From NCBI GenBank assembly GCA_030390025.1, contig CM059431.1:148554001-148618000 (forward strand): a stretch of 64,000 nt of DNA, in the 5' to 3' direction. Positions 2,227-19,810 of the stretch are shown piece after piece; position 1 is the stretch's first letter; each line of letters opens with the position of its first letter. The notes beneath the pieces were generated by a model. That model had not been told where the DNA came from. It did no database searches and saw only the letters and a program-made list of their open reading frames with translations. A program made the translations under genes and the position numbers. Source of the DNA: Squalus acanthias. Its lineage: Eukaryota.

Positions 2227-5099
2227 TCAGTATCCCGTCCCCGCCTTCTCTCCGTAACCCTTAACCCCTTTTGCCTGTAGAAATATATCTAATTCCCTCT
2301 TAAATATATTTAATGAGCTGGCGTACACTGCCCTCTGTGGCAATGAGTTCCACAGGTTCACCACCCTCTGAGTGAAGAAATTCCCCCTCATTTCTGTCCT
2401 AAATGGTTTAGCCCTTATCCTTAAATTATGTCCTCTAGTTCTGTTCTCACCCGCCAAGGGAAACATTCCTTCTGCATCTAGTCTGTCTAGACCTGTCAGA
2501 ATTTTATACACTTCTATGAGGTCCCCTCTCAATCTTCTAAACTCCAGTGTGTACATCCCTAAACTACATAGTCTCTCCTCATAGGTCAATCCCGCCATTC
2601 CTGGTATCAGCCTGGTGAATCGCCGCTGCACCCCCTCCATGGCAAGAACATCTTTCCTCAGATGAGGCGACCAAAACTGTACACAGTACTCGAGGTGTGG
2701 TCTCACCAGTGCCCTGTACAGCTGCAGCAAGGTATCCCTGTTCCTGTATTCCAAACCTTTTGCTATGAAGGCCAGCATACCGTTTGCCTTCTTGACCGCC
2801 TGTTGCACCTGCATGCTCGCCTTCAGTGACTGGTGTACAAGAACACCCAGGTCTCTCTGTACTTCCCCCTCTCCCAATTTATTGCCATTTAAATAATAAT
2901 TTGCCCTCCCGTTCCTGCACCCAAGGTGGATAACTTCGCACTTGTCCACATTATAGTGCATCTGCCATTTATCCGCCCAATCACCCAGTCTGTCCAAATC
3001 GCTCTGGAGCTTCCTGGTCTCCTCCTCTGAGCCCACCCCCCCCCCCCTCCTAGTTTAGTGTCGTCTGCAAATTTGGAAATGCTGCATCCGACTCCCTGAT
3101 CCAGGTCATTAATGTAAATTGTGAACAGCTGGGGACCCAGGACAGATCCCTGCGGTACCCCACTTGTTACTGCCTGCCATTCAGAAAATGAGCCGTTTAT
3201 TCCAACTCTCTGTTTTCTATCTGACAGCCAGTTCTCTATCCACGTCAATACTTTCCCCTTTATCCCATGAGCTTCAATTTTCCCTGCTAATCTTTTATGT
3301 GGGACCTTATCGAAGGCCTTTTGGAAGTCCAGGTACACCACATCTACTGGCTCTCCCCCATCTATTTTACCAGTTACTCCCTCAAAAAATTCCAATAGAT
3401 TAGTCAAGCACGATTTACCCTTTGTAAATCCATGTTGACTCTGTCCTATCCTGTCCCCATTTGCTAAGTGCTCCGCTATTTCATCCTTAATGATGGACTC
3501 CAGCATTTTGCCCACAACTGATGTAAGGCTTACAGGTCTGTAATTACCTGCTTTTTCCCTACCCCCCTTTTTGAATAGTGGGGTAACGTTAGCTACCCTC
3601 CAATCCATGGGCACTGTTCCCGAGTCTAATGAATTCTGAAAAATCATACTTAGTGCATCCGCTATCTCTAGGGCCATCTCCTTCAGCACCCTAGGATGCA
3701 TGTTATCAGGCCCTGGGGATTTGTCCGCCTTCAATCCCTTTAGCTTCCTTAACACCATATCCTTAGAGATATTGATTTGCGTCAGTTCCTCCTTTGCAAA
3801 TGTCCCTATTTTTCCCGATATCCCAGGGAGGTTTTTTGTGTCTTCCTTCGTAAAGACTGACCCAAAGTATGCATTTAGTTGGTCTGCCATTTCCTTATTT
3901 CCCGTTATATATTCCCGCGTATCTGACTGCAATGTGCCAACTTTGGTTTTCACCAGTCTTTTCCTCTTGATATACTTATAAAAGCTTTTGGAGTTAGTTT
4001 TTATATTTTCCGCCAGCTTGCTTTCATAAGCTATTTTGCCCCTCTTGATTAAGCCCTTTGTCCTCCTTTGCTCTATCTTAAACTGTTCCCAATCTTCCGC
4101 TCTGGCGCTTTTTTTGGCTACTTTATACGCCCTATCTTTGGATTTTATGCTGTCTCTAATTTCCCATGTTATCCACGGTTGGTTCACCTTTTTAGATTTC
4201 CTTTTATGCCAGATTGGTATAAACAATTTTTGCAATTTTGTCATTCTATCTTTAAATGCTTGCCATTGCTTATCTACCTCCAGTCCACCCAGGAACGTTG
4301 TCCAATCAGACCTACTCAGTTCCCGTCTAATGGCATCATAATTCCCCTTGTTTAAATTCAGGACCTTCGTATCTGAGTCAATTTCTTCGCTCTCCATTTC
4401 GAGTGAGAAATCGATCATGTTATGATCGCTCTGACCCAAGGGTCCCCGTACAACAAGATTACTAATTAGTCCCTTCTCATTGCACAGTACCCAGTCCAAT
4501 ATAGCCTGTTCCCGAGTTGGTTCCTCGACATATTGATCCAGATAACCATCCCTTAAACACTCAAGGAATTCCTCCTCCTCATTATTTTTACTGATTAGGC
4601 TATTCCAATCTATATGTAAGTTAAAGTCACCTATGATGACAGCTGTGCTCTTATTGCACGCTTCTCTAATTTCCCTCGTGATGCCCTCCCCAACCTCTAT
4701 TTTACTATTTGGAGGCCTATATACCACTCCTATTAATGTTTTTCGCCCCTCGCTATTTCTTAGCTCCACCCATATAGATTCTGTATTAACTGAGTTAATA
4801 TCCTTCCTTTCAATTGCATTTATCCCTTCTTTTACCAGCAATGCTACCCCTCCTCCCTTTCTTTTTTGTCGATCCTTCCTAAATACTGAATACCCCTGTA
4901 TGTTAAGCTCCCAGCCCTGCTCACCCTGCAACCATGTTTCCGTAATCCCAATTAGATCATAATTATTAACCTCTATTTCCACAGCTAATTCATCTACCTT
5001 GTTCCTGATGCTTCTCGCATTAAGGTATAAAACCCTCAGGCTTTTTTTATGCTCACATTTTTTATGAATTAGTTTGGCCCTTTGTTTTTTGTTCCTCAC
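2227..5099 (-). CDS. CR1 ORF2p (APE endonuclease + reverse transcriptase), one frameshift at a C12 run (3036-3047)
   Basis: YLNARS, ETW, GDFN, SDH (endonuclease); [28 protein letters not shown] (RT). C-terminal part in ORF 2227-3036. Confidence 0.92.
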
Positions 5100-5173
5100 C
5101 CTTTTACCATTTATTTCTGTCTGCCTTTCACTTTCCTCTATTTCACTGCATAGGTTTCTAGCCCCCTGCCATA

Positions 5174-6079
5174 CTAGTTTAAATGCTCCCGAACTGCTTT
5201 ATCAAAAATTACCCCGAGAACATCAATTCCATCTTTGCACAGGTGTAGACCGTCCCTTTTGTATAGGTCACACCTACCACAAAACTGGTTCCAATTCCTC
5301 AAAAATTTAAAACCCTCCCTCTTACACCAATGCTCAAGCCACGTATTTAGCCTAACTATCCTCTTCTCTGTACTCTTACTCGCACGTGGCACTGGTAGTA
5401 ATCCAGAGATTACTACCTTCGAGGTCCTACTTTTTAGCTTGGCTCCTAACTCCCTAAATTCTACTTGTAGGACCTCTTCCCTTTTTTTAGCTACGTCGTT
5501 GGTACCAACATGTATCACGACAACTGGCTGTTCCCCCTCCCCCTCCAGAATGTTCTGCACCCGCGCCGAGACATCCTTGACCCTTGCACCAGGGAGGCAA
5601 CATACCATCCTGGAGTCTCGGTCGCGACCACAGAAACCCCTATCTATTCCCCTTACAATCGAATCCCCTATTACGATAGCCCTGCCACTCTTTTTCCCTC
5701 CCTTCTTTGCAACAGGGCCAGTCATGGTGCCATGAGCCTGGCTGCTGGTGCCTTCCCCCGATGAGTCATCCCCCCCGACAACAGCACCTAAGGCGGTGAA
5801 CCTGTTGCTAAGGGAGACAACCCCAGGGGATTTTTGCACTACCTTCCTGCCCTTGCTCTGCCTTTTGGTCACCCATGTACTATCTACGCTGGCCTTAACC
5901 TGCGGTGTGACCAACTCACTAAATGTGTTATCCACAACCCTCTCAGAATCGTGGATGCTCCAAAGTGAGTCCATCCGCAGCTCAAGGGCCGTCATGCGGT
6001 CCCACATGAGCTGCAGCTGGACACACTTCCCGCACACATGGTTGTCAGGGACACAGGAAGCGTCCCTGATTTCCCACAT
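5174..6079 (-). CDS. CR1 ORF1p: N-terminal Cys motif/coiled coil plus SGNH/GDSL esterase domain
   Basis: [39 protein letters not shown] esterase blocks; open for 301 aa. Confidence 0.9.
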
Positions 6080-6107
6080 GTTACAGGAGGATATGATAAT
6101 AGATAAA

Positions 6108-6510
6108 TGTTTTTTTATTCATTTTTCTAATGTGGGTGTCGCTAGCAATGCCAGCATTTGTTGCCCATCCGTAATTGCCCTGGAGAAGGTTGTGGTGCGA
6201 CGCCTTATACAACTGAGTGGCTTACTCGGCCATTTCAGAGGAGCAGTTAATAATCAACCACATTGCTGTGAATTTAGAGGCACATTGCGGCCAGGATGGG
6301 TAAGGACGGCAGATTTCCTTCTCTGAAGGATATTAGTGAACCAGCTGTGTTTTTACGACAATCCGGAAGTTTCATGTTCATCATTACTGACACTAAACTT
6401 TTGTTCCAGATTTGTTTAATTAATCGAATTTAAATTGCACAGCTGTTGGGACTTGAACCCAGGATCATTCATCCATGCATCTGGTTTACGAGTCTAGCAA
6501 CATAACCACT
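6108..6510 (-). mobile_element. tRNA-derived SINE with 3' tail shared with the L2/CR1-group LINE
   Basis: B-box-like GGGTTCAAGTCCC on minus (~6448-6460); body homologous to 62400-62850; tail matches LINE 3' end at ~22310-22420. Confidence 0.7.
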
Positions 6511-6519
6511 AAACTAACG

Positions 6520-6725
6520 TAAACTTCAAATATATCGCCGTTCCTTCATCGTCACTGGGACAAAAGCATGAAATTCTTCCATAACAGTTTTGTGGGAGCA
6601 CCTTCACCACATGGACTGCTTGCGGCTCAAGTTGAAGGCCCACAATTTTCTCCTGGGTAACTAGGGATGGGCAAGTAATGCCGGCCTTGACAGCGCCGTC
6701 CATATCCTGAGAACAAATAAATATA
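6520..6725 (+). mobile_element. 3' end fragment of the L2/CR1-group LINE
   Basis: Reverse complement homologous to ~22320-22520 (CGCCGTTCCTTCATCGTC...GGGATGGGCAA). Confidence 0.7.
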
Positions 6726-6959
6726 AATAATAAAATGGGAATAAATTCACTGATTATGAAATTCACTGATTGAAACCAGGCGAGGCCTGTGATCAGAGCG
6801 GAGCTTCATGTTCCGCCAAAAAAAATGCCAACACAACTTGGCTCACCAATTCTATGGTTTTATGATTGATACTTCTTACACTTTATCAATTTCCCTATAC
6901 TTGCAAAAGCTGCTTGATAAAGCAGCACATATTTCCAAAATTTAAGCCCATGGGATAAA

Positions 6960-7675
6960 AGTGGCAGTGGCAACAGTGAGTGGTGCGACTTATGTCAGTA
7001 TTACAGTGTGGGGTGAAACCTTCCAGAGTGTGGCATGTATCAGAGGGCTACAGTGAGGGATGTGAGGAATATCAGTATTACAGTGAGTAGTGTGGGGATA
7101 ATAGTCCAGAGTGTGGCATGTATCAGAGTGTTACAGTGAGGGGTGTGGGCTATATTATAATGATACAGTGAGGGTGGGTTATATTAGAGTATTACATTGA
7201 GGTGTGTGAAGTATATCGGTGTATGTTACAGTGTGGGGTGTGGGCTATATTATAATGATACAGTGAGGGTGTGGGTTATATTAGAGTATTACATTGAGGT
7301 GTGTGAAGTATATCGGTGTATGTTACAGTGTGGGGTGTGGGCTATATAAGAGTGTTACAGTGATTGGTATGGAGTATAGCAGAGTGTGTTACAGTAATGG
7401 AGGTGGAGTATATCAGAGTGTTACAGTGAGTGATGTGGGGTAAATCAGAGTGTTACAGTGAGGGGTGTGGTCTGTTTCAGTGTGTTACAGTGAGGGGTGT
7501 TGTGTTTCTCGGAGTGTTACAGTGAGGGGTGTGGTGTATATCAGAGTATTACAATAAGTGATGCCGGGTAAATCAGAGTGTTACAGTGTGGGGCGTAGGG
7601 TATATCAAAGTCTTAAATTCAGGGGTTTGCGGTATATCAGAGATTTATAGTGTAGGGTGTTGCGTATATCAGAGT
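6960..7675 (+). repeat. 32-bp minisatellite (TGTTACAGTGAGGGGTGTGGGGTATATCAGAG-like)
   Basis: TTACA(G) recurs at 7389, 7421, 7453, 7485, 7517, 7549, 7581; reverse complement array at 58100-59030. Confidence 0.9.
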
Positions 7676-8855: not shown

Positions 8856-9415
8856 CTTGGATCCATGTTTTGTTATGGAACCTGTAAGTTATGGCCTCCT
8901 GGTCTCACACCATCAGCTTGTAGCTGATTTGGATACAACCATGTCCACCTTGTCCAGACAGAGACAGGTCTCGGCCTCCGTTAATATATGTTGTTTTTAC
9001 CCTCCCTACAATCTTTCTTTGTTCAATACTTAGTAGAGGCCTTGAAGCTGACGACAAAGTTAGCGGTAAGGAAATCCTAATTTGATGAGCATTATCTTGA
9101 CTTTTAATTGTAATGCCTCTGACAGGGTTTTTAACACTATCCTGAATATTTAAAATCGGTTTCTCTATGGAGAATGTGTCGTGGCCTTTATGATTTAAAA
9201 AGTGTCTCACTCTCCTGAGCCACATCAGCCATTTCATGTTGTGCTGCTGTCGATAACGAAGCATGTTTGAGACTCGTTCGTTCACGCACAAAACCGTATC
9301 CCAATATCATGCCACACGTGACATCGGATCCAAGCCATTCTCGGGTTTTCAGGTGATCTTATCAAAAGATCGTGAGGTGTCTGGAGATCTTTGCTTATCT
9401 CCTTCTGCGTGGTTC

Positions 9416-10586
9416 TGTAAGGGGTATCTTGATGGGGTCAGCCTTGGCTTTCTGACAAAGTGAGCGGTTCCAATAGCTCCAACACCCCTCCTTTTACTAG
9501 ACTTTGGGCTTATTTAGGGGTTGTGAACAAAATTGCAGTAAACAGGTTCTGATGAAAGAATTTGAATTTATTAAAGGAAAAAGGTAACGAACTTGAAACA
9601 CACTTATTACTTAAACGCAGATTCGGGTAACACACGGTACAAGCGAGGGAAATGACAATATATCAAACACAACCTTATCCCTCCCAAACTTCCCACTATC
9701 TGGCAAGGTTTTTGGTTTCAGGAGGTCAGGGATAATGTTCACCAACGAATCCTTGACAGGATATTAGAGTCTTTTGTTTATGTGCGAGGTGTCTGATGGT
9801 CACTGAGACAGTCGCTCTGGTTTATTCTTGCGTGCTGGTTTTATGGCCTTCTTCCTCGTGGCTTGTGGTAAGTTTTGCTGGAGCAGGGACAGAGCCGTAT
9901 CCGCGTCGTCAGTCAGTCCGAAAAAGAGAGAAATTATGGCACAGGCTCTCAAATTATACTGTTTCTTTTTCGCGCCCAAAAACCCGTTACTAAAACGAAT
10001 TCCTTTTTGATTGTAAATGAACCTTGCTTAGTCCAATTGTTTAGTTTTTGTCGTTCTTGCCAGTTCCGATGGTTTTTGCTTAGTGTTAATCGTTTTCCGA
10101 TTTAAAAACACAGCCTTATCTACACGTCAACTCTCCACCCTATTGTCCTTCTGTTGGCGGGCTGTTAAATCTGTTCTGTGGAAACCTGGTTGATTGTTTT
10201 TTTGATGGGATAATGGCTATGAAACTGTGTGATCGAAGTTATATTGTCATTGAATCGTTTTTAGATTTCCAGCATCTTGTTTCCCCTGGGGATCCATATT
10301 TGAATGTGTTTGTGAGTTTTGCTTTGTCTCAAACAATTCCCAGACAGCTTGATCTGTTCACTGACCGGCCACGCCCCTCGCAGCTTGTGCCTGTGAAAAA
10401 GATGTCTCTCTCAACAATAAGATTTAAAAAAAAATCAGTTTCCTCAGTTTTTTCTTCCATGATCTATAGGTTTTTACATCAAATCACTTTACTTAGGCCC
10501 CATCGTCCCAAGTTTGTATGAAAAGTCCAAAAATCACTCCCTTTAGGGATCTGTTCGAGTTTCTGGGGAATTTTGCGAAGCCTACA
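9416..10586 (-). repeat. 3' LTR (1171 bp)
   Basis: TGTAAGGGG...GCCTACA on +; direct repeat of 17192-18387; AATAAA on minus at 9567-9572. Confidence 0.95.
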
Positions 10587-10869: not shown

Positions 10870-13213
10870 TCAAGGTTTGTTCCATCCCCGGCCATAGCCT
10901 TTATTTTGATGCACTTCCCAAGGACCTTCGTGTCTGCAGCGGAGCTCCTCGTCCCTTCCCCTTCACTTTGTACACAGCAGGTAGAGAACTATCCCGAGCT
11001 GGCAGACCACCAAAAGATGGGAAGCCATCCTCATCCAGGACGGCACCTCTATATTCTCGAAAATATCCCGCCAGTTTTGAACTACTATATCCAAAATCTC
11101 TGCCCCTATTTCAAATGTTTTCTGTTCCAGGTTGTAGAAATGTTTTTGTGAAATCTCTGCAGCTTTAAGTAGGATGTTAAGTAGGGGGAATTTTATATCC
11201 AAAGTAAGTCACATACTATTGCAGGTTTGTAATGTTTTCTGTAACAGTGAGGTGAGGAGTGAAGGTTTCAGGAATGGGGACAATCCGTTCCTGGGCAACT
11301 TGAACTTCTGCCTCGGGTTTAAAGCAGAAACTGCTGTCACTTACCGGACACCAGAAGTGTCCATGCTGGTAGTGGGACGCACCTGTGGTGACACAATATG
11401 TCCCACCCCATATATATGCTACCTGTGGGGAAACATGGCCGTGTGCCATCACCTCCATGGTACAATTGATAGGTCGTGCGCCAGCAGCTTTAAACCCGCA
11501 CTGTGGTTTGGAATAGGCGGTCAAGTGCTGGGGACACAGTATTATGTGTGAACCCCGGCTCCGGCACCCGGAGAGGTCAGTACCTGTCATGCCTTCCTCC
11601 CACTTTATGATATAAGGTGGGACCGCTGTAAAACGGATGTGTGCACCCCCTTGAATTACTCCACTGTTCTCCACCCTGTATACCGGTACGGGTCGGGCTG
11701 TCCCACTCATGACTGGCATTCTCACTACTATCCCCATGACAGTGTGATTTGAACGCCCACAATCTATTGGGACAGGGCAGGCTTCAGAGGCTAGACGAAA
11801 TTGGCATGGACTCAGCGAATTACTAAACGGGTTGAGGGCTGTAAGGTGCTTGTTGCTGATCCAGCAGGGGACTAAACCTTGCTTTAAATCCTCCAGGTTG
11901 CGACGGTCCTCGCCCAGTAACCATGCCCCGTACAGCACACACACCTCATTCTGTGCAGCCTGATCCGATGCATTTCTATCCTCCCGTATGAGTGAATTTA
12001 CTGTTTTGGCATGCCTTTCCAATTCTGCAATAATTTCCTTTAAATGAACCGTCAAAGCTTGGTCCTCATGTAGCTCTGAGCCTACCACTGTGTTCCCATC
12101 CTTCAGGATCTTACTTAACTGGGTTTTTCAACCATTTATCTGTGTCTGTAATTCCATGTCATTCAGGCTATTTATTACAGAGGACCCTGTACTATAGGCA
12201 GTGAAGACATCATTCCAGGCTCCCCTTCTTTGTCTACCCGTGCCCATAGGGTTCTCAGGGTGTATTCTGTATAGCTCTACTTTGTCTATATTGGCAAAAT
12301 CAAATTCGTAAAATTTCCTAAACATTTCCTTCAGCAGGGCCTGGTACAGCTGCTCCGTTTCCTTAGGACACCACACAGGTAAGTATACCTCGGTAAGGTT
12401 TAATATTACTGAAGCTACTGCATAGTGTTCCCCCTGGTATAGTACCTTTTCGTTTGGTGCTAGGACTAACCCATTCCCTGGTCCCTTGGTGGTGGTAGGG
12501 CACTTTTCTTCCAGGGTTTTCGGTACCTGGCTCGTGGGTAGGGGCTTTCGGGTGTGTGCCACGAGTTCAGTGGCATTAACTGGGACCTGAATGTGTGGCA
12601 CCACGCACCCATGCAGGCTAGAATCACACCCTATCCCCTCCCCGGCATCTTGCCATTGGCTGGAGAAGATGATGGATTCCCCTATGGGGCAGGCTTCCTA
12701 TGATCCCCACATACAACCATAGACTCCCTGTTCCGACTCCCACCACTTATCCCAACAAACACTAACTTCTCCTTGGGTCCCTGTGATTGTCCGGTGGGTG
12801 TCGTTCCCTAATCTTTCCCAGTCGGCTGTATGGTACCCTGCGTCCCTGCTCAGCTTCCTGAGCCACCACCACCTAGTCAGGGGAATTCGTCCCTTACAGG
12901 TAAGGCACATACGCTTCCCCTCGGTGACACTGACCCTGGTGGCAACGACCTGCATTCTGGGTCATGGGAGGTAGGCCTCCCCGTACGTGAACCCGGGCTG
13001 GGTGGATTATTTAGTAAAGTTGGACCCCAGCCACCCTGGCCACCTCCCCTCGTGGAAGTAGATGGCGAGCTCCACCACTACCCGCTCGCCACCCCCTGCG
13101 GTGACGACTGGTGCTCTCACTCCTGAGCACCCATAGATGTGAGAGTCCTCCACGTCACCTCGGTAGCCGATGCTCACCCCTACCAGGGCGAAGAGGAGCA
13201 GAAACCTTGTCAT
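10870..13213 (-). pseudogene. env: env: signal peptide, Ig-like domain, furin site, F-type fusion ectodomain, TM anchor
   Basis: ORFs 13007-13249, 12698-12955, 12128-12604 and 11216-12088 share one frame, separated by stops; 10963-11202 is frameshifted. MTRFLLLFALVGVSIG; RQRR|GAWNDVFTAYSTGSSVINSL; heptad region; Cys-rich DLSGC..IILCP, YCVTT, FCF; TM-like HLLVVCQLGIVLYLLC. Confidence 0.85.
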
Positions 13214-13225
13214 CCCGATGTCCTT

Positions 13226-13252
13226 TCTGTAGGGGCACACACAAAACATATA
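13226..13252 (-). promoter_or_regulatory. Probable env splice acceptor
   Basis: Minus strand TTTTGTGTGTGCCCCTACAG| lies 13 nt upstream of the env ATG (13213). Confidence 0.6.
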
Positions 13253-13439
13253 TCCATGTCCCAGAAAGGTTCTCCGGCTGGATAATCAATCAAGCCCTTA
13301 AACTTAAAAAAAACTCTACAAACAACGAAACTAATGATAACTCAAAACCACCAAAACTGCAATTACTTAAAAACCCAAATTTATGTTCATTTGCCGCCCG
13401 TCTCCGGGCGGCCAGGTTAAATCATGTTTGGTCTCTGCC

Positions 13440-14374
13440 TTATGCGGCCTCTGGATGGCTTGTACACCTGGGTGTCGTGCGGCCTGTACCGCAGACCCAG
13501 AAGGCCTTCCTCAAATCCGCTGGGGGTATCTTAACATCCCAGCTGCGTCCTGTGCTGCAGCACACTACCCACTTTGGTGTGTTTGCAGCGCCCTCGTTCA
13601 TATCTGTGGGCTCCTCCCAGCCTGAGGCTGCGGGCGGGGGACCCTTCTCTCTCTCTCCTTCCAGTACTACCTCTCCTGTGAAACCCTCACTGTTGGAGGC
13701 TGTAGGCTGGGAATCACCAACTTTAGAACGCTCCCTGCTCTTGGGCGCCCTTCTTCGGATTGCAACCCTCTTTGGGTGGGACCCTCTTAACAGATACACC
13801 TGTGGCCACAGTAGCCTTTGCTGTGGTGTGCGGGGAGACCTTCTTAGGGCTCTGGCCACTGGGGGTGTGCTTGAGCCCCACATAATCGGTGGAGTGACCT
13901 CTCCTGTGAGACAACACACTGTCCCTCCCGCTCCAGCCTGTGCGTCTGCCACAGTTGTGTCTGGCTGCGGATTTCTAACTTGGGGGCAGTCCACCTTTGC
14001 CGGCTGTTCCCTTTTAGGTTTAAACAGTTTGCACTGGTCAATCTCCCACTCGTGAGTTATCTGGGGTTCTAACAGCAGCCTATCTTTCTGGTGCTGGCTC
14101 CCCAGGTTACTGGCTGCTTGCCAGTGATTCTGTTTAAAAATCTGGTCCTCTGCCCTGAAAGGACCTCCGAGGGACTCCCCTCACTCTCTCTACCAGGCCG
14201 GACTTAAAGACGGGATGCTGGGCTTGGACCTGCTTTAAGTCCGGGGGCTAAGCTACCCCCTGTGTGCCTCCCTTGTCCCGGATTGCAGCTACCGGACCTG
14301 CATTATAGGGATCCCATAACTCTCCTTCACTGGCCCCCTGCTTGGCCAACTTGTCGGCCTTTTGGTTACCCTCC
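13440..14374 (-). pseudogene. pol: pol remnant: RNase H C-terminus, integrase-flanking segments and a Pro/Arg-rich tail; RT and IN cores absent
   Basis: My translation: GNQKADKLAKQGA (14332-14370), DLKQVQAQHP, then HWQAASNLGSQHQK...HEWEIDQCKLF running into ORF 13440-13994. No YxDD or DDE motifs seen. Confidence 0.75.
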
Positions 14375-17116
14375 CACGTGGTATGGAGGGATCCTAAATC
14401 TATGTCCAAAGGTTTGGATATGGCCCCAGCCTGCTTGTTCCCTGTGATTCACATTAAACTGTACGGGACCCCGCTAGACCTGAGTGAATTGGTCAGGTCT
14501 GCCGAATGGACCACCGTGCTGGCGGCTCCGGTGTCCACCAAACATCTCCCCTGCACTTTCTCCACCCCCTTCTTCACATCGTATCCCAGGGGAACACAGG
14601 TAGACAGGCTGCGCTGGTTCCAGTCATAGGTCTGCATTAGGGTGGGGGCTGATGGGATTAATGCACCAGTAGCTACCTTCCCTGGGCCACCAAACAGGAC
14701 TCTGATGGCCGCTACTATTGTGTCCAGTGTGGGGGAAGAGGTCGATGCCTCTACTTTTGGGGCAAAAGCTGGGGAATTTTTTGTCAGCATATCCTTCCAG
14801 GGATTTCTACAGTCCTTTCTCCAGTGCCAACTCTTCCCGCACCCGAAGCAGTTACGCTTCATATCTGAAGGTTTACCACCTTCCTGGTCCCACTCCTTCT
14901 TATCCTGAGTGGGCTTTATCTCATACACCTTCCCTTTCAGTGGGGTGTCTTCAGCTCCCCTACCGTTCCGGTAGGCTAGGGTCAGTTGCCAGACCACTGC
15001 CTCCTCGGTGACCCGGGGATCTCTTGGGTCAAACCAAAGCACAGCCATGGCTTTGACTCGTGGCAAGCTGTTTGCCACTTGGTTACGGAGCCAGTGGGCT
15101 AGCTCGTCCCTGTTCAGGTTAGCCCTGTCGAGAGCCCCATTACAGGCAACCATGTACACCGGCCACAGCCTGTCTGCGAAAGCCTGTGGGATCACCCCTG
15201 CGAGCTGCACTGTTTTTCTCCACCCGGGAGAAAGGACTTCCCTCATTCATTCCCATGGCCTCTAAAACTTCCTCCCTGAGGGAAGCATACCCGTTCTGTC
15301 CTCTCTTGCTCTCATTAGAGAGTGACTGGTACAATTTCCCATCAATGAGAACAGGAGCTATTTTGCCATTTCGGCATCGTCACAATCGTTAATGGCTGCT
15401 GATTGTTCCACCTCCATGAAGTGAACTGCGGGGTCTTCCTTTTGGGTAAGTTTACTCTTGTGGTTTACCATAGCCCTAAGCTCTTGTGTACCGTGGGGAG
15501 CCAAGAATTGACTTTCAAGGGGTCGCTGACCTCCACCACCGGCGGGCGAGCCGAATTTTTGCTGTCGTGCTGGGCACATTGGCCCTGGCTCCGACTTCTC
15601 CTGCATCGGTTCGCCCCCCTCTCCCTGCTGCCAGACCGAGTCAAAACTCGGCGCCACAGGTGCTGGTGTGCACTCCCTGTCAGCCTCACAGATTGTCTGC
15701 ACCTTCTGCTGCCTAAACAAGCTTCTCCTTGGCGCCACAGGTGGTGGTCGAACAGTCTCCCCCTGCTCTACCAGGTCTGCCTGGGCCGCACCCGGGCTTA
15801 TCAGGCACAGCATGCCTTTTGTCTTGATCAGAGCAAGGTTCAGACTCTCAATCTGCTTCTGAGAGGGGCCGTGGTCCCCTACCTCAAACTCCCTTTTACT
15901 GGCTATTCTATAGGCTGCCTGAACATCGTTTAACTTCTCTGTGAGTTCCCTTAATTGCTTGGCAAGGCGGGTGTTCTGTTCCCGCAATGCCAGTTCACTA
16001 CTTTTGGCCCCGGTGGACTGATACTGGAGGTATCCCTTACTGGCACGGTGTTCCTCCAGCATCTGTGACTGTTCCTGATCTTTTGAGCCGAGCTCTGCTA
16101 ACAACCTATCTCCTGCTATAGCTCTGGCACGGGACAGTTGGCTTTCTTTCTTTAGCTCTTCTGTGAGAGCCTGAATACACTTCCCATAAGCTGCATTTGT
16201 TTCTGGGAGCAGACCAACCATATGGCTTTATCCACAGACTTATTGGCCCAGAAATTGATCTCGCTCTGTTCCCGCGGGGGTAAGCCTTCCCCGCGTTGTC
16301 TCACCTCGCTTGTGCTTTTTCAGATCCAGCTCGCACGAACTTGATGTTCCAGACATCAGCTGTGCTGGGCTTGCGTATCCCAGCGGCGTAGTGAATTCGT
16401 GCGAGCTGTGGGATCACGTGACTCAGATGGAGTCAATGGCAGCACACCATCTTCCATTCATAAGTTTCACAGACCTGCTCTGAAATCTATGAATCTTACA
16501 ACCCCCCAAAATAACAGCTAAACCTCAATTAAATTTAAAAAAAAACCATCACATTAATAAAATAAGTATAGTTAATTAAATTAACCATTTTAAATAAAAA
16601 ATTAAATTTTTGAAAAAATTTAAAATCTTTTAAAAAGTTATAAAAATAAACTTACCTGTCTTTAAAGTCTCTAAAAAAGATATACCTGTAAAAAAAAATT
16701 CAAAAAAATACTTAATTCACTACTTACCTTCTTAAAAGCGGGTCTTACTCCTCCTTTTTACATTTCCAAAATCTTCCCTACTTACCTGCGCGTCCAAAGC
16801 ATGAAGTGCACAGCGTGCGCGCAGCCTGTAGCGCGCACGCGATGCACCCAGGACCCGCCCCCTTTTCAGAAGAGCAATTGCCGGTTTTCAGCGCATGCGC
16901 AGGGCATGCAGAAAACCGGCAATTGGAGTGGAAATACGCGAGAGTACGCAGTGCGTACTCTCACTTCCCGGGATGAATTTTCGGCCCATTGTATTCCTTG
17001 CTCTCAGTCCATGCAGCTGCAGCGTCCATGGGACGTTCAGCATGCAACAGCCTGAGGACCCATTTCTGGGTGATATTTACTTTTTTATATACATAGGATG
17101 ACATCCTCTCTTCCAT
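14375..17116 (-). pseudogene. gag: gag-pro: coiled-coil N-region, capsid-like region, CCHC knuckle, PSAP motif, aspartic protease N-half; broken by MITE, stops and frameshifts
   Basis: ORFs 16961-17188, 15358-16221, 15140-15334, 14449-15246. CFGCGKSWHWRKDC (14809-14850), PSAP (14644-14655), CLVDTGA (DTG 14527-14535). Confidence 0.85.
16245..16987. mobile_element. MITE (PIF/Harbinger-like, 3-bp TSD) inserted in gag
   Basis: Imperfect TIRs GGCCCAGAAATT / AATTTTCGGCCC; ATT on both flanks; homologous to 56764-57476. Confidence 0.8.
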
Positions 17117-17187: not shown

Positions 17188-17191
17188 TTTA

Positions 17192-18387
17192 TGTAAGGGG
17201 TATCTTGATGGGGTCAGCCTTCGCTTTCTGACACAGTGAGCGGTTCGACTCGCTCCAACACCCCTCCGGTTCCTTGACTTTGGGCTTATTTAGGGATTGT
17301 GAACAAAATTGCAGTAAACAGGTTCTGATGAAAGAATTTTACTTTATTAAAGGAATAAGGTAACACACTTGAAACACACTTATTACTGCAGCACAGATTC
17401 GGGGAACACACGGTACAAGCGAGGGAAATGACAATATATCAAACAAAACCTTATCCCTCCCAAAGATCCCACTATCTGGCTAGGTTTTAGGTTTCAGGAG
17501 ATCAGGGATAATGCTCACCAACGAATCCTTGACAGGATATTAGAGTCTTTTGTTTAAAAGGACTCCGTAAGGCCCTTGTTGCTGCGAGGTGTCTGATGGT
17601 CACTGAGGCAGTCACTCTGGTATCTTCTTGTGTGCTTGTCTTCTGGCCTTCTTCCTCGTGGCTTGAGGTAATTTTTGCTGGAGCAGGGAGAGAGCTGTGT
17701 CCACGTCGTCATTCAGTCCGAAAAAGAGAGAAATTATGGCACAGAATCTCAAATTATACTGTTTCTTTTTTGCGCCCAAAAACCCCTTACTAAAACGAAT
17801 TCCTTTTTGATTGTAAATAAACCTTGCTTAGTCCAATTGTCTAGTTTTTGGCGGGCTTGCCAGTTCCGATGGTTTTTGCTTAGTGTTAATCGTTTGGCCC
17901 ATTAAAACACAGCCTTACTTACGCGCCAAATCTCCAACCTATTGTCCTTCTGTTGGCGGGCTTTTAAATCTGTTCTGAGGAAACCTGGTTGATTGTTTTT
18001 TTCGATAGGATAATGGGTATGAAACTGTGTGATCGAAGTTATATTGTCATTGAATCGTTTTTAGATTTCCAGCATCTTGTTTGCCCCTGGGGATCCAAAT
18101 TTGAATGTGTTTGTGAGTTTTGCTTTGACTCAAACAATTCCCAGGCAGCTTGATCTGTTCACTGACCGGCCAAGCCCCTCGCAGCTTGTGTCTGTGAAAA
18201 AAATGTCTCTCCCAACAATCAGAATTTAAAAAAAATCATTTTCCTCAGGTTTTTCTTCCATGATCTATAGGTTTTTACATCAAATCACTTCACTTAGGCC
18301 CCGTCATCTGAAGTTTGTATGAAAAGTCCAAAACTCACTCCCTTTAGGGCTCTGTTCGAGTTTCTGGGGGATTTTGCGAAGCCTACA
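17192..18387 (-). repeat. 5' LTR (1196 bp)
   Basis: Same termini as the 3' LTR; many substitutions and one ~25-bp indel relative to it; followed on minus by the PBS. Confidence 0.95.
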
Positions 18388-19389: not shown

Positions 19390-19810
19390 AGAGAGGAAGA
19401 TGGACAAAGTGACAGAAATAGAGAGGAGATATAAATGGAAATAGAGAGAGGAGTGATTAATCAATATAGATAGGGAGAGATAGGGTGACGGAGATAAAGG
19501 AGAGATAGATGGAGATAGAAATAGTAGAGATTATTATGTACAGATAGGGAGAGAGAGAGGGTGACAGATATAAAGGCGAGATAGATGGAGCTAGAGAGAG
19601 AGGAGAGATTACTAGATATAGATACCCTACCTGAAGAAGGGGCGACAGCTCCGAAAGCTTGTAATTTTAAATAAATCTGTTGGACTATAACCTGGTGTTG
19701 TGCGACTTCTCCTGGATATAGATAGGGAGAGAGAGTGGTTGACAGACATAGAGGAGAGATAGATGATAGCAGACAAACGCGAAGTCAGAGGTAGATTTTA
19801 GACAGAGGGA
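19390..19810 (+). repeat. GA/GATA-rich low-complexity tract
   Basis: GAGATAGA-like units. Confidence 0.8.
19625..19711 (+). ncRNA. Solo Penelope terminal repeat with minimal hammerhead ribozyme motif (stem II degenerate)
   Basis: TAC-CTGAAGA-AGGGGCGACAGCTCC-GAAAGCTT-GTA, then AATAAA and TGTTGGACTATAACCTGG; same unit at ~26584 and 44351. Confidence 0.7.

Follow-up and report, generated by a model that had tools for sequence, protein, structure and literature searches.

The window (the whole 64-kb stretch of Squalus acanthias DNA that was analysed) carries on its minus strand a degraded endogenous retrovirus bounded by a pair of long terminal repeats (LTRs). The 5' LTR (17189-18387) was recognised as a direct repeat of the 3' LTR (9413-10586) and by repeat families D1-D5, and the pair is 90.6% identical over 1201 aligned bases, with 84 mismatches and seven gap openings. 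The 5' part of gag (15358-16227) is a coiled-coil-rich open frame, 93% identical in DNA to gag in a full-length copy of the same family, and it matched no Pfam family above the cut-off. The 3' part of gag (14449-15246) combines a CX2CX4HX4C zinc knuckle with the protease motif DTGA; its translation contains CFGCGKSWHWRKDC and LVDTGAAS, and the corresponding open reading frame (ORF) of the full-length copy matched zf-CCHC with E 2.9e-4 and 21.2 bits, above the cut-off of 20.8. A remnant of the RNase H end (14248-14448) shows the motif GNQKADKLAK and a weak match to positions 122-140 of the PF00075 profile. About 3.4 kb of pol, comprising the reverse transcriptase (RT), most of RNase H and the integrase, are missing here: when the window was mapped by blastn against the full-length copy (L022), positions 3768-7135 of the reverse complement of the latter had no counterpart. 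From the 3' end of pol to the beginning of env (13172-14038), the DNA is 93.4% identical to the stretch directly upstream of env in the full-length copy, which encodes PR, RVT_1, RT_RNaseH_2, RNase_H, Integrase_H2C2 and rve. Among solved chains, the nearest to the RT of the family were RTs of the MLV type, with E 1.3e-67, slightly ahead of those of foamy viruses, with E 1.2e-62. The copy in the window is dead and internally deleted, and it belongs to an endogenous retrovirus family of very high abundance. In view of its LTRs, stops and pol deletion, the idea of a host gene co-opted here was rejected.

The env gene (10963-13213, minus strand) is broken by four in-frame stops (13007-13009, 12962-12964, 12698-12700 and 12128-12130) and by a frame shift near 11209-11216, and it ends prematurely at 10963. 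Over 3004 aligned bases, it shows 93.4% DNA identity to another genomic copy whose env is uninterrupted and encodes an Env of 796 aa from the first ATG (the open copy). The initial annotation had placed a signal peptide, an Ig-like segment, a stalk and a region resembling viral fusion (F) proteins in one frame. When the minus strand was read from 13300 to 11216 with stops as X, all these peptides did fall into a single frame, broken in this copy by the four stops, in the order MTRFLLLFALVGVSIG, VSVTEGKRMCLTCKGRIPLTRWWWLRK, GEVSVCWDKWWESEQGVYGC, VPVNATE..KPLPTSQVPKT..PTTTK and the fusion-protein part. The hydrophobic N-terminus MTRFLLLFALVGVSIG (13166-13213), which is kept in other copies, reads as a putative signal peptide. 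It is followed by the pre-Ig part of the head (12962-13165), containing the conserved motif GRWPGWLGSN, and by the Ig-like domain (12647-12961), assigned from Ig profile similarities. This domain spans 105 codons, one of them the stop at 12698-12700, and has its canonical Cys, Trp and Cys at 12896-12898, 12863-12865 and 12713-12715, respectively. Its first proposed limits (12698-12955) do enclose a segment that is Ig-like at the sequence level, but they stopped about 18 residues short: every similarity score became higher when these residues, presumably the G strand, were added up to 12647. A Cys-containing stretch and a short Pro/Thr-rich linker with one N-x-T sequon come next (12512-12646). 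The linker had been described as a mucin-like stalk; it is indeed rich in Pro and Thr, but, as counted on the sequence, it consists of ~40 residues with ~35% Pro+Thr and is not a long mucin-like region. The F2-like part (12224-12511) ends in the furin-type site RQRR (12224-12235), and the F1-like part (10963-12223) would contain a putative fusion peptide, a long heptad helix, a Cys-rich beta core, a second helix and a membrane anchor, its final 82 codons (10963-11208) being in the shifted frame.

The fusion body of the envelope protein

The structure of the full 796-aa Env was predicted with AlphaFold2 from 39 natural sequences, giving a model with a mean pLDDT of 45.5 that is usable only around residues 260-530. 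In a Foldseek search with this model, all eight matches at E<=0.001 were F proteins of RSV or hPIV3 (best E 2.2e-5, probability 1.00); model residues 275-515 aligned colinearly with RSV F 51-307, and the structural alignments of the body to F had ~10% identity. The best fold matches of the body were paramyxo-/pneumovirus F structures (PDB 1ZTM, 3RKI, 2B9B and RSV prefusion F), with the body starting about at the mature F2 start. Likewise, the language-model features of the body scored 0.92 to the Fusion glycoprotein F0 cluster, with 198 of 256 features in common. The open copy has a single R-x-K/R-R site, RQRR at 339-342, after which 454 residues follow, and in its model helices span 364-456 and 691-726, with a hydrophobic one at 741-768. 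The order signal peptide, F2, furin-type site, fusion peptide, heptad repeat A, beta core, heptad repeat B and membrane anchor was found, the naming of the parts being our reading, and the fold of F domains I-III was recognised on the low-confidence model. In its predicted fold, on this low-confidence model, the Env body agrees with both paramyxo-/pneumovirus F and foamy-virus Env. As initially proposed, the Ig-like segment would thus sit on an F-type fusogen, in a head joined by the linker to a body with a predicted F-like fold.

Paramyxo-/pneumovirus F and the shark Env both have a furin-type cleavage site ahead of the fusion peptide, but no sequence similarity between them was detectable. 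The open Env matched neither PF00523 nor Baculo_F nor the foamy-virus Env families of Pfam at E<=10, the broken Env likewise gave no Pfam match to F proteins, and these families were absent among the 25 listed of the 69 Pfam families for 39 members. Among solved chains, no F protein was reached by phmmer or by a 7-row family profile, and with the profile no chain was found at E<=10.

F-like retroviral Envs have been described in lokiretroviruses (Wang and Han, Mol Biol Evol 2020; PMC7947760), where Env matches PF00523 with an e-value of 2.2e-7 and where the hosts are lampreys, bony fishes, amphibians and reptiles. The shark Env resembles them in its F-like class I build, comprising signal peptide, R-X-K/R-R, fusion peptide, coiled coil and membrane anchor, and in its occurrence as endogenous copies in lower vertebrates (PMC7947760); unlike them, it has no PF00523 match at E<=10. 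A retroviral pol with tether and RNase H together with an F-like env, as expected of lokiretroviruses, was found in the shark family. The words shark, cartilaginous, Chondrichthyes and immunoglobulin do not occur in the main text of PMC7947760, and three word-seeded protein searches as well as an exhaustive one returned cartilaginous-fish env fragments only, with no link to bony-fish lokiretrovirus Envs and no host donor of the Ig-like domain.

Character, conservation and origin of the Ig-like segment

Among the Pfam families that had been named for the head segment, Ig_3 was matched in all seven diverse family members (the best with E 8.5e-4, over positions 2-74 of the 78 in the profile), although all seven matches stayed below the curated cut-off, the best score being 20.2 bits versus 30; V-set and I-set were absent from the reports on these seven members. 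In a larger alignment of 39 rows, 12 of which hold part of the Ig-like segment, Ig_3 was matched in nine. When solved structures were searched with the family profile, the top two rows were the Ig-V domain of CRTAM, at E 0.006 and 0.014, and DIP-eta came next at E 0.1; the other four of the seven rows were non-Ig proteins at E 0.8-7. The alignment to CRTAM (4h5s_A) runs end to end (7-98 to 7-97 of 101), and the family residues C22, W33 and C83 fall on the canonical Cys, Trp and Cys. A comparison by hhalign with 16 host Ig_3 exons gave a probability of 62%, a P of 7.4e-5 and a score of 27.5, with 30% identity of the first sequences over 71 aligned columns. None of 200 column shuffles reached this score (maximum 21.1), and the reversed alignment scored 10.4. 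Since the score obtained with the host-exon profile was unmatched by shuffles, the Ig-type motif is more than chance. Language-model features were at 0.90-0.92 to the V-set/I-set clusters. In seven sequences of 56-90% identity, C22, W33, G79, Y81 and C83 are invariant, the Cys pair having a distance of 61 residues, and in the alignments to CRTAM and the host Ig exons they coincide with their counterparts. The segment thus has the canonical Cys of strand B, Trp of strand C and D/E-x-G-x-Y-x-C of strand F at the spacing of Ig domains. The domain also has three extra cysteines, Trp clusters (WWW, WDKWW) and one conserved N-glycan sequon.

These last features, unusual in their Trp load and additional cysteines, could also be those of a non-Ig beta domain of the viral Env, conserved and rich in Cys and Trp, in which case the Ig matches would reflect a few common motifs (L-x-C, W, G-x-Y-x-C). 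Every Ig match lies under the curated thresholds, and AlphaFold2 produced no confident sandwich: the pLDDT was 34.2 for the head alone (232 residues, 13-row alignment) and 31-62 for the Ig-like segment of the full-length model. With the head-only model, Foldseek gave no match at E<=0.001 and no Ig chain, the weak top rows being the DNA-binding domains of p53, p63, p73 and grainyhead. However, even the low-confidence full-length model has seven strands in the segment where A, B, C', D, E, F and G are expected. Furthermore, three independent libraries indicate Ig, and no other fold with any consistency (Pfam in seven of seven members, the top three of the solved structures, and the host exons by hhalign), in alignments that cover the full length and agree at the Cys-Trp-Cys triad and at an hhalign score equalled by no shuffle. 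A non-Ig domain is, therefore, unlikely, and the similarities support, at the sequence level, a divergent Ig-like domain of V/I type.

The segment is present, at 87-100% identity, in at least 150 copies of the same genome, a number that derives from the best 150 scored of 5,377 first-look candidates. Among these best 150 matches, 128 have an 87-residue segment free of stops; open frames of at least 600 aa contain 33 of the 150, and frames of 785-960 aa contain 15. Continuous ORFs of relatives in Rhinoraja longicauda, Pristiophorus japonicus and Rhincodon typus contain it as well. Many copies and other cartilaginous fishes thus keep the domain within open env ORFs, and it is neither a separate ORF nor a copy-specific insertion. 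Between the shark copy and the skate protein, identity was 57% in the pre-Ig part (39/68) and 57% in the Ig-like domain, while the post-Ig stretch and the linker, with 40%, were least conserved. The dN/dS of the Ig-like segment was 0.16 between lineages A and C and 0.10-0.11 between A and B; elsewhere, it was 0.29-0.33 (pre-Ig part), 0.27-0.76 (linker) and 0.08-0.30 (fusion body, between lineages), with a dS of ~1.5 between lineages within the genome. These values indicate that the Ig-like segment is under purifying selection, and it is the most conserved part of the head. Retroviral receptor-binding domains often evolve fast; strong conservation of the Ig-like segment would also suit a structural or regulatory role.

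The initial annotation had explained the domain by capture from the host. In favour of the virus having taken up a host exon of the Ig superfamily (IgSF), of which the domain would still be a recognisable copy, Ig domains are overwhelmingly cellular and this one is Ig-like. In addition, heads differ between env lineages, so modules were gained or swapped, and the best solved match is the V domain of a host adhesion receptor, CRTAM. However, the exhaustive search, covering 1.84 billion representative proteins, yielded no IgSF donor and no host match to the head at E<=0.001. Its 17 hits were 16 env relatives and one spurious repeat protein outside the Ig segment; of ten hits looked up, seven were named, and all seven were env-type gene models of cartilaginous fishes. 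In the search for a donor within the own genome, the best 150 matches were all env copies, and a distant donor could lie beyond these. The likeness to host Ig exons is generic, as the identity over the 71 columns indicates. Since the domain is common to shark and skate elements (57% identity) and dS between lineages is ~1.5, any capture would be ancient and its donor no longer identifiable. We consider a recognisable host copy possible, if doubtful, and a capture, if it took place at all, to be old.

The N-terminal head and its proposed role

In the same genome, other env lineages have 31 ORFs whose alignment to the open copy, at 24-32% identity, begins only at residue 231, and their N-terminal parts are unrelated to the Ig-like head. 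Similarly, distant database relatives match query residues 210-361 only, and distant env lineages cease aligning upstream of the post-Ig/linker stretch. Within one genome, the same fusion body is found with at least four unrelated heads, one of them Ig-like. In the full-length copy that was examined, env is a single gene, and no further candidate for an attachment protein was seen. In paramyxo-/pneumoviruses, by contrast, attachment resides on a separate protein, and F has no N-terminal head.

An F-like scaffold with an added receptor-binding module has been described for foamy-virus Env gp130, termed 'class Ib' (Fernandez et al., Sci Adv 2024; PMC11468914; PDB 8RM0/8RM1), and class Ib fusion proteins are reported there to gain modules of this kind in viruses that do not possess a protein of their own for attachment. 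The foamy-virus module interrupts SU, lying between its N- and C-terminal parts, and there the leader peptide has a second membrane span; in the shark Env, the module lies N-terminal to the whole F2-like segment. Foamy-virus Gag is not known to have a Cys-His knuckle, unlike the Gag of the shark family with its CCHC zinc knuckle. Affiliation with the foamy viruses (Spumaretrovirinae) was rejected on account of this knuckle and of the head being N-terminal to the F2-like part.

Gamma-type Envs consist of an N-terminal receptor-binding domain, a proline-rich region and a C-terminal SU domain (PMC9967133). The shark Env resembles them in its N-terminal, putatively receptor-binding beta domain and in a poorly conserved Pro-rich hinge to the rest, but differs in its long F-like fusion subunit (~450 residues), the lack of CX6CC and the lack of any sequence relation. 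A gamma-type Env was rejected, given the absence of C-x6-CC from the 796-aa Env and the long TM subunit.

We propose that the protein is an F-like Env with a conserved Ig-like domain in its N-terminal head, most likely as a receptor-binding module, a reading to which we would give a probability of roughly two in three. In copies with an open frame, Env would be made as one precursor of ~796 residues, with signal peptide, head, linker and a complete F-like class I fusion protein. The head, of ~220 residues, would be built from a 70-residue part, the 105-residue divergent Ig-like domain (with additional cysteines besides its canonical Cys-Trp-Cys core) and a short stretch containing Cys, and the fusion part from an F2-like segment, RQRR, the fusion peptide, a long heptad helix, a core rich in beta structure, another helix and the membrane anchor. 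In a virus without a separate attachment protein, the head may act as the receptor-binding module, held above the fusion trimer by the flexible linker, and receptor engagement or a later cue would free the F-like refolding. The lineages may have swapped heads at the linker.

Instead of serving attachment, the Ig-like head could be an immune decoy, as suggested in the initial annotation, or a modulator, or it could shield and regulate the fusion trimer as a cap. That purifying selection is strong and variability low is easier to reconcile with a structural or regulatory role than with an interface in an arms race, and the segment carries the one conserved N-glycan sequon. However, the single env leaves the full-length copy examined with no other candidate for attachment, and the modules added to class Ib proteins are receptor-binding ones, as described in PMC11468914. 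We consider a decoy or cap quite unlikely.

A more specific variant of a receptor-binding head would be a cassette system, formed by the env genes of this group of elasmobranch retroviruses, in which the conserved F-like body takes interchangeable N-terminal heads at the Pro/Thr joint. One lineage would have gained a nectin/CRTAM-like V-type Ig from an adhesion receptor of the host, which would dock on the natural Ig partner of that receptor on host cells, with entry by mimicry of an adhesion pair. The Ig-V domains of CRTAM and nectin-like proteins (PDB 4H5S, 3RBG) are the best solved sequence match, aligned along the entire V domain such that the canonical Cys, Trp and G-x-Y-x-C coincide, but the shark domain differs from them in its three extra cysteines and Trp clusters, E reaches only 0.006-0.014 and there is no sign of descent. 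This variant would be a long shot.

The view that no retroviral env with such an architecture had been described needs to be narrowed: F-like Envs (PMC7947760) and added modules (PMC11468914) are both on record, although no Ig-like head on an F-like retroviral Env was found in the literature on lokiretroviruses and on env genes of shark and cartilaginous-fish endogenous retroviruses. Because F-like retroviral Envs and added receptor-binding modules were already described, the overall picture is not fundamentally changed. If the reading of a receptor-binding Ig-like head is true, it would extend F-like retroviral envelopes to cartilaginous fishes, hosts that are absent from the main text of PMC7947760, and would provide a natural example of the modular build proposed for class Ib fusion proteins. 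The small, conserved, disulfide-rich head would then be a tractable object for finding the receptor of an ancient fish retrovirus. The finding also bears on how retroviruses, paramyxo-/pneumoviruses and coronaviruses came to share a fusion scaffold.

The provirus in the window and its relatives

Repeat comparison detected a pair of direct repeats, each about 1.2 kb long, at 9413-10586 (3' LTR) and 17189-18387 (5' LTR) of a minus-strand element; they enclose a retrovirus-like interior. Their identity is 90.6% across 1201 aligned bases (84 mismatches, 7 gap openings). Between them, all on the minus strand, lie a gag-type open frame (16227-15358), a second frame in which a CX2CX4HX4C zinc knuckle and the protease motif DTGA occur (15246-14449), the remnant of an RNase H end (14448-14248), and an env frame that starts at 13213 with the residues MTRFLLLFALVGVSIG. 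In a full-length family member of the same genome, the gag product matches zf-CCHC and pol shows the order PR, RVT_1, RT_RNaseH_2, RNase_H, Integrase_H2C2 and rve; DNA alignment revealed that the window copy has no counterpart to about 3.4 kb of this pol. The window env carries in-frame stops at 13007-13009, 12962-12964, 12698-12700 and 12128-12130 and a frame shift near 11209-11216, and it ends prematurely at 10963. All the peptides quoted in the initial annotation were recovered by translating this env, in a single frame of the minus strand.

A locus about 1.65 Mb away on the same contig (L002, 150214016-150217276) carries a second copy of the Ig-like segment that matches the window's at 99% identity; there, as in the window copy, the segment forms an 87-aa open frame with stops on both sides. 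It seems that the already broken provirus was duplicated together with its surroundings, giving L002. Just beyond the 5' LTR, two adjoining, purine-rich direct repeats of 73 bases, 74% identical, occupy positions 19424-19570. In a Rhincodon typus gene model (P0013), a coiled-coil gag-type sequence like that at 15358-16227 of the window is fused to the env signal peptide and the pre-Ig head, which suggests that internally deleted gag-env elements may occur elsewhere too.

In a six-frame search of the 3.7 Gb genome with the 87-residue open piece of the window segment as query, the best 150 of 5,377 first-look candidates were scored and showed 87-100% identity. The segment was stop-free in 128 of these 150 matches, and the open frame reached at least 600 aa in 33 and 785-960 aa in 15, counts that are skewed towards intact copies since the top-scoring matches were the ones scored. 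One genomic copy encodes an Env uninterrupted for 796 residues from the first ATG, and this open Env was used as the numbering reference. In public protein collections, the segment was found within continuous frames of Rhinoraja longicauda (P0003, P0006), Pristiophorus japonicus (P0004) and Rhincodon typus (P0008), as well as in two metagenome-type records; among 10 proteins looked up, all seven named relatives came from cartilaginous fishes. An exhaustive search of 1.84 billion representative proteins with the first 361 residues returned 17 proteins at E<=0.001, of which 16 were env relatives and one was a repeat protein matching residues 256-308 only. With open env frames in many copies and in public relatives, the segment is a regular component of env and not a private insertion.

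Within the window's lineage, two signal-peptide/upstream types precede an identical Ig-like segment, MTRFLLLL... and MKGGILLL..., splitting L005, L010, L011, L014, L015, L017 and L018 from L003, L004 and L006-L009. These sequences hint at recombination or alternative env 5' ends. The Pristiophorus japonicus models P0004, P0005 and P0021, in which env fragments are fused to ZFP2-like zinc-finger, Niban 1-like and cadherin-related 5-like proteins, are probably annotation chimeras across ERV insertions.

Ig-like character of the N-terminal segment

In the 796-aa Env, a signal peptide ending at about residue 28 is followed by 68 residues (29-96) that include the conserved motif GRWPGWLGSN, then by the Ig-like segment (97-201), and by a Cys-containing stretch plus a short Pro/Thr-rich linker with one N-x-T sequon (202-246). 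The body starts near CPTTTKGPGNGLVL, at about residues 247-250, and contains RQRR (339-342) as its sole R-x-K/R-R site, two long predicted helices (364-456, 691-726) flanking a Cys-rich beta region, and a hydrophobic helix at 741-768. A CX6CC motif is absent from the 796-aa Env.

The Ig domain proposed from the sequence was partly borne out by Pfam: Ig_3, the sole recurring family, matched all seven domain sequences (mutually 56-90% identical), but the best match (E 8.5e-4, 20.2 bits, profile positions 2-74 of 78) stayed under the curated cut-off of 30. In a 39-row Env alignment, Ig_3 was matched in 9 rows, and at least part of the segment was present in 12. When a profile of the seven sequences was compared with all solved chains, the CRTAM Ig-V domain took the top two ranks (E 0.006 and 0.014), with DIP-eta in third place (E 0.1) and four unrelated proteins in the remaining rows (E 0.8-7). 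The CRTAM alignment places profile positions 7-98 on 7-97 of the 101-residue domain, with the invariant C22, W33, G79, Y81 and C83 on the B-strand Cys, the C-strand Trp and the F-strand G-x-Y-x-C. Adding 18 residues past the initially annotated end point, presumably the G strand, improved E from 0.096 to 0.006 for CRTAM and, in the open copy, from 0.057 to 8.5e-4 for Pfam. Against 16 aligned Ig_3 exons of the host genome, hhalign gave the viral profile a probability of 62% (P 7.4e-5, score 27.5, 71 columns); all 200 column shuffles stayed at or below 21.1, and reversing the alignment gave 10.4. For the window's 87 residues, language-model features, taken as a lead only, lay at 0.90-0.92 to unnamed or V-set/I-set clusters. 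Judged by its sequence, the segment is Ig-like, at a remote level.

A model of the head alone (13-row alignment) had a pLDDT of 34.2 and gave no Foldseek match at E<=0.001. The full Env, modelled from 39 natural sequences, reached a mean pLDDT of 45.5, with ten-residue block means of 31-62 in the segment. In this low-confidence model, strands at 103-108, 113-119, 143-148, 151-158, 161-167, 173-181 and 193-199 sit at the places expected for A, B, C', D, E, F and G, and the C strand appears as a short helix. Overall, we estimate a chance of about four in five that the segment folds as an Ig-type sandwich.

An F-like body with unrelated heads in related env lineages

A Pfam search of the Env gave no match at E<=10 to PF00523, Baculo_F or foamy-virus Env families, and a family profile had no match among solved chains. 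With the full-length model, all eight Foldseek matches at E<=0.001 were post-fusion RSV F or hPIV3 F (best E 2.2e-5, probability 1.00), at TM-scores of only 0.14-0.27. The aligned region, residues 274-515 approximately, has block pLDDT values of about 33-79, mostly above 55, and model residues 275-515 correspond to RSV F 51-307. By language-model features, residues 255-770 came closest to a cluster named 'Fusion glycoprotein F0' (0.92, with 198 of 256 features in common), 88% of whose members carry PF00523. These model-based comparisons support an F-like body. By extrapolation, its start would lie at about the mature F2 start, so that head and linker would represent extra sequence N-terminal to a complete F-type protein.

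Further env lineages were retrieved by a genome search with a distant relative, P0017 from Mustelus asterias. By BLASTP, 31 ORFs of other lineages were 24-32% identical to the 796-aa Env, and none of the alignments began before residue 231; among the env lineages of this genome, the head aligned only in the window's lineage A, in C (84% protein identity) and in B (about 60% over the head). In each of the other lineages, the N-terminal region is a different one: Cys-rich, about 90-300 residues long, and unrelated in sequence to those of the rest. A Pro/Thr-rich stretch comes next, ahead of the conserved body start C-P-x4-G-P-x-G-L/V-V-L. At least three such lineages with an F-like body, each with one head type, were distinguished (L037, L041, L046; L045, L048; L065, L066), and Pfam showed no family in their heads. 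A shared body with unrelated heads is the strongest support for the earlier view of the Ig-like region as a distinct module on a linker, and it points to replacement of heads in the course of this env group's evolution.

The RT/RNase H is nearest, among solved chains, to those of MLV-type (E 1.3e-67) and foamy (E 1.2e-62) viruses, far less close to Ty3 (E 2.8e-43) or HIV (about 1e-15), and the dual RNase H arrangement of the full-length copy is retroviral. Foamy-virus Gag is not known to carry a zinc knuckle, and the one in the present Gag disfavours a foamy virus. An F-like env is described as a hallmark of lokiretroviruses (PMC7947760). The lokiretrovirus Env of that paper matches PF00523, unlike the present Env, and the paper's main text makes no mention of cartilaginous fishes. 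The most apt description of the family, provisionally, is that of a retrovirus whose env is lokiretrovirus-like (F-type).

Constraint, origin and possible role of the head

Pairwise Nei-Gojobori dN/dS was calculated for single pairs of natural copies of the three Ig-headed lineages of this genome. The Ig-like segment gave 0.16 (A vs C) and 0.10-0.11 (A vs B, with dS saturated at about 1.5), compared with 0.29-0.33 for the pre-Ig part, 0.27-0.76 for the linker and 0.08-0.30 for the fusion body; neutral decay after integration could only push these ratios upwards. Between a shark copy and a skate protein, identity was 57% in the pre-Ig part (39/68), 57% in the Ig-like segment (60/105), 40% in the linker (18/45), 69% in the F2-like part (66/96) and 72% in the first part of F1 (50/69). 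The low dN/dS and the shark-skate identity indicate that the segment is a viral protein domain that is functional and under constraint.

The host IgSF donor sought for this domain did not emerge: none was present among the 17 proteins at E<=0.001 from the 1.84 billion representatives, and the hhalign likeness to host Ig exons is generic. Since the domain is older than the split of the compared lineages (dS about 1.5) and is present in shark elements and in those of a skate, it cannot have been captured recently; capture from a host IgSF gene in the distant past is plausible.

The full-length copy examined contains gag, pol and one env, and no further candidate surface protein. Paramyxo- and pneumoviruses leave attachment to a separate, second glycoprotein; lacking one, foamy viruses place a receptor-binding module within an F-like scaffold, and coronaviruses have such modules at the N-terminus. 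Class Ib fusion proteins are described as taking up receptor-binding modules where the virus has no attachment protein of its own (PMC11468914). By analogy, the Ig-like head would serve as the attachment module, furin-type cleavage at RQRR would prime the protein, the head and the F2-like part would form the surface subunit and stay on the F1-like part, and the long heptad helix would refold once a receptor, or some later cue, triggers it. So little variation in the domain is somewhat surprising for a receptor-binding surface, so that a structural or regulatory role stays alive as a rival to attachment. The immune-decoy role first suggested found no support.

The initial annotation knew of no described retroviral env with this architecture. 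In the literature searched, we found no Ig-like head on an F-like retroviral Env, no occurrence of it in elasmobranchs and no case of several unrelated heads on one body in a single genome. F-like retroviral Envs are a known kind, and so are class Ib scaffolds with an added receptor-binding module.
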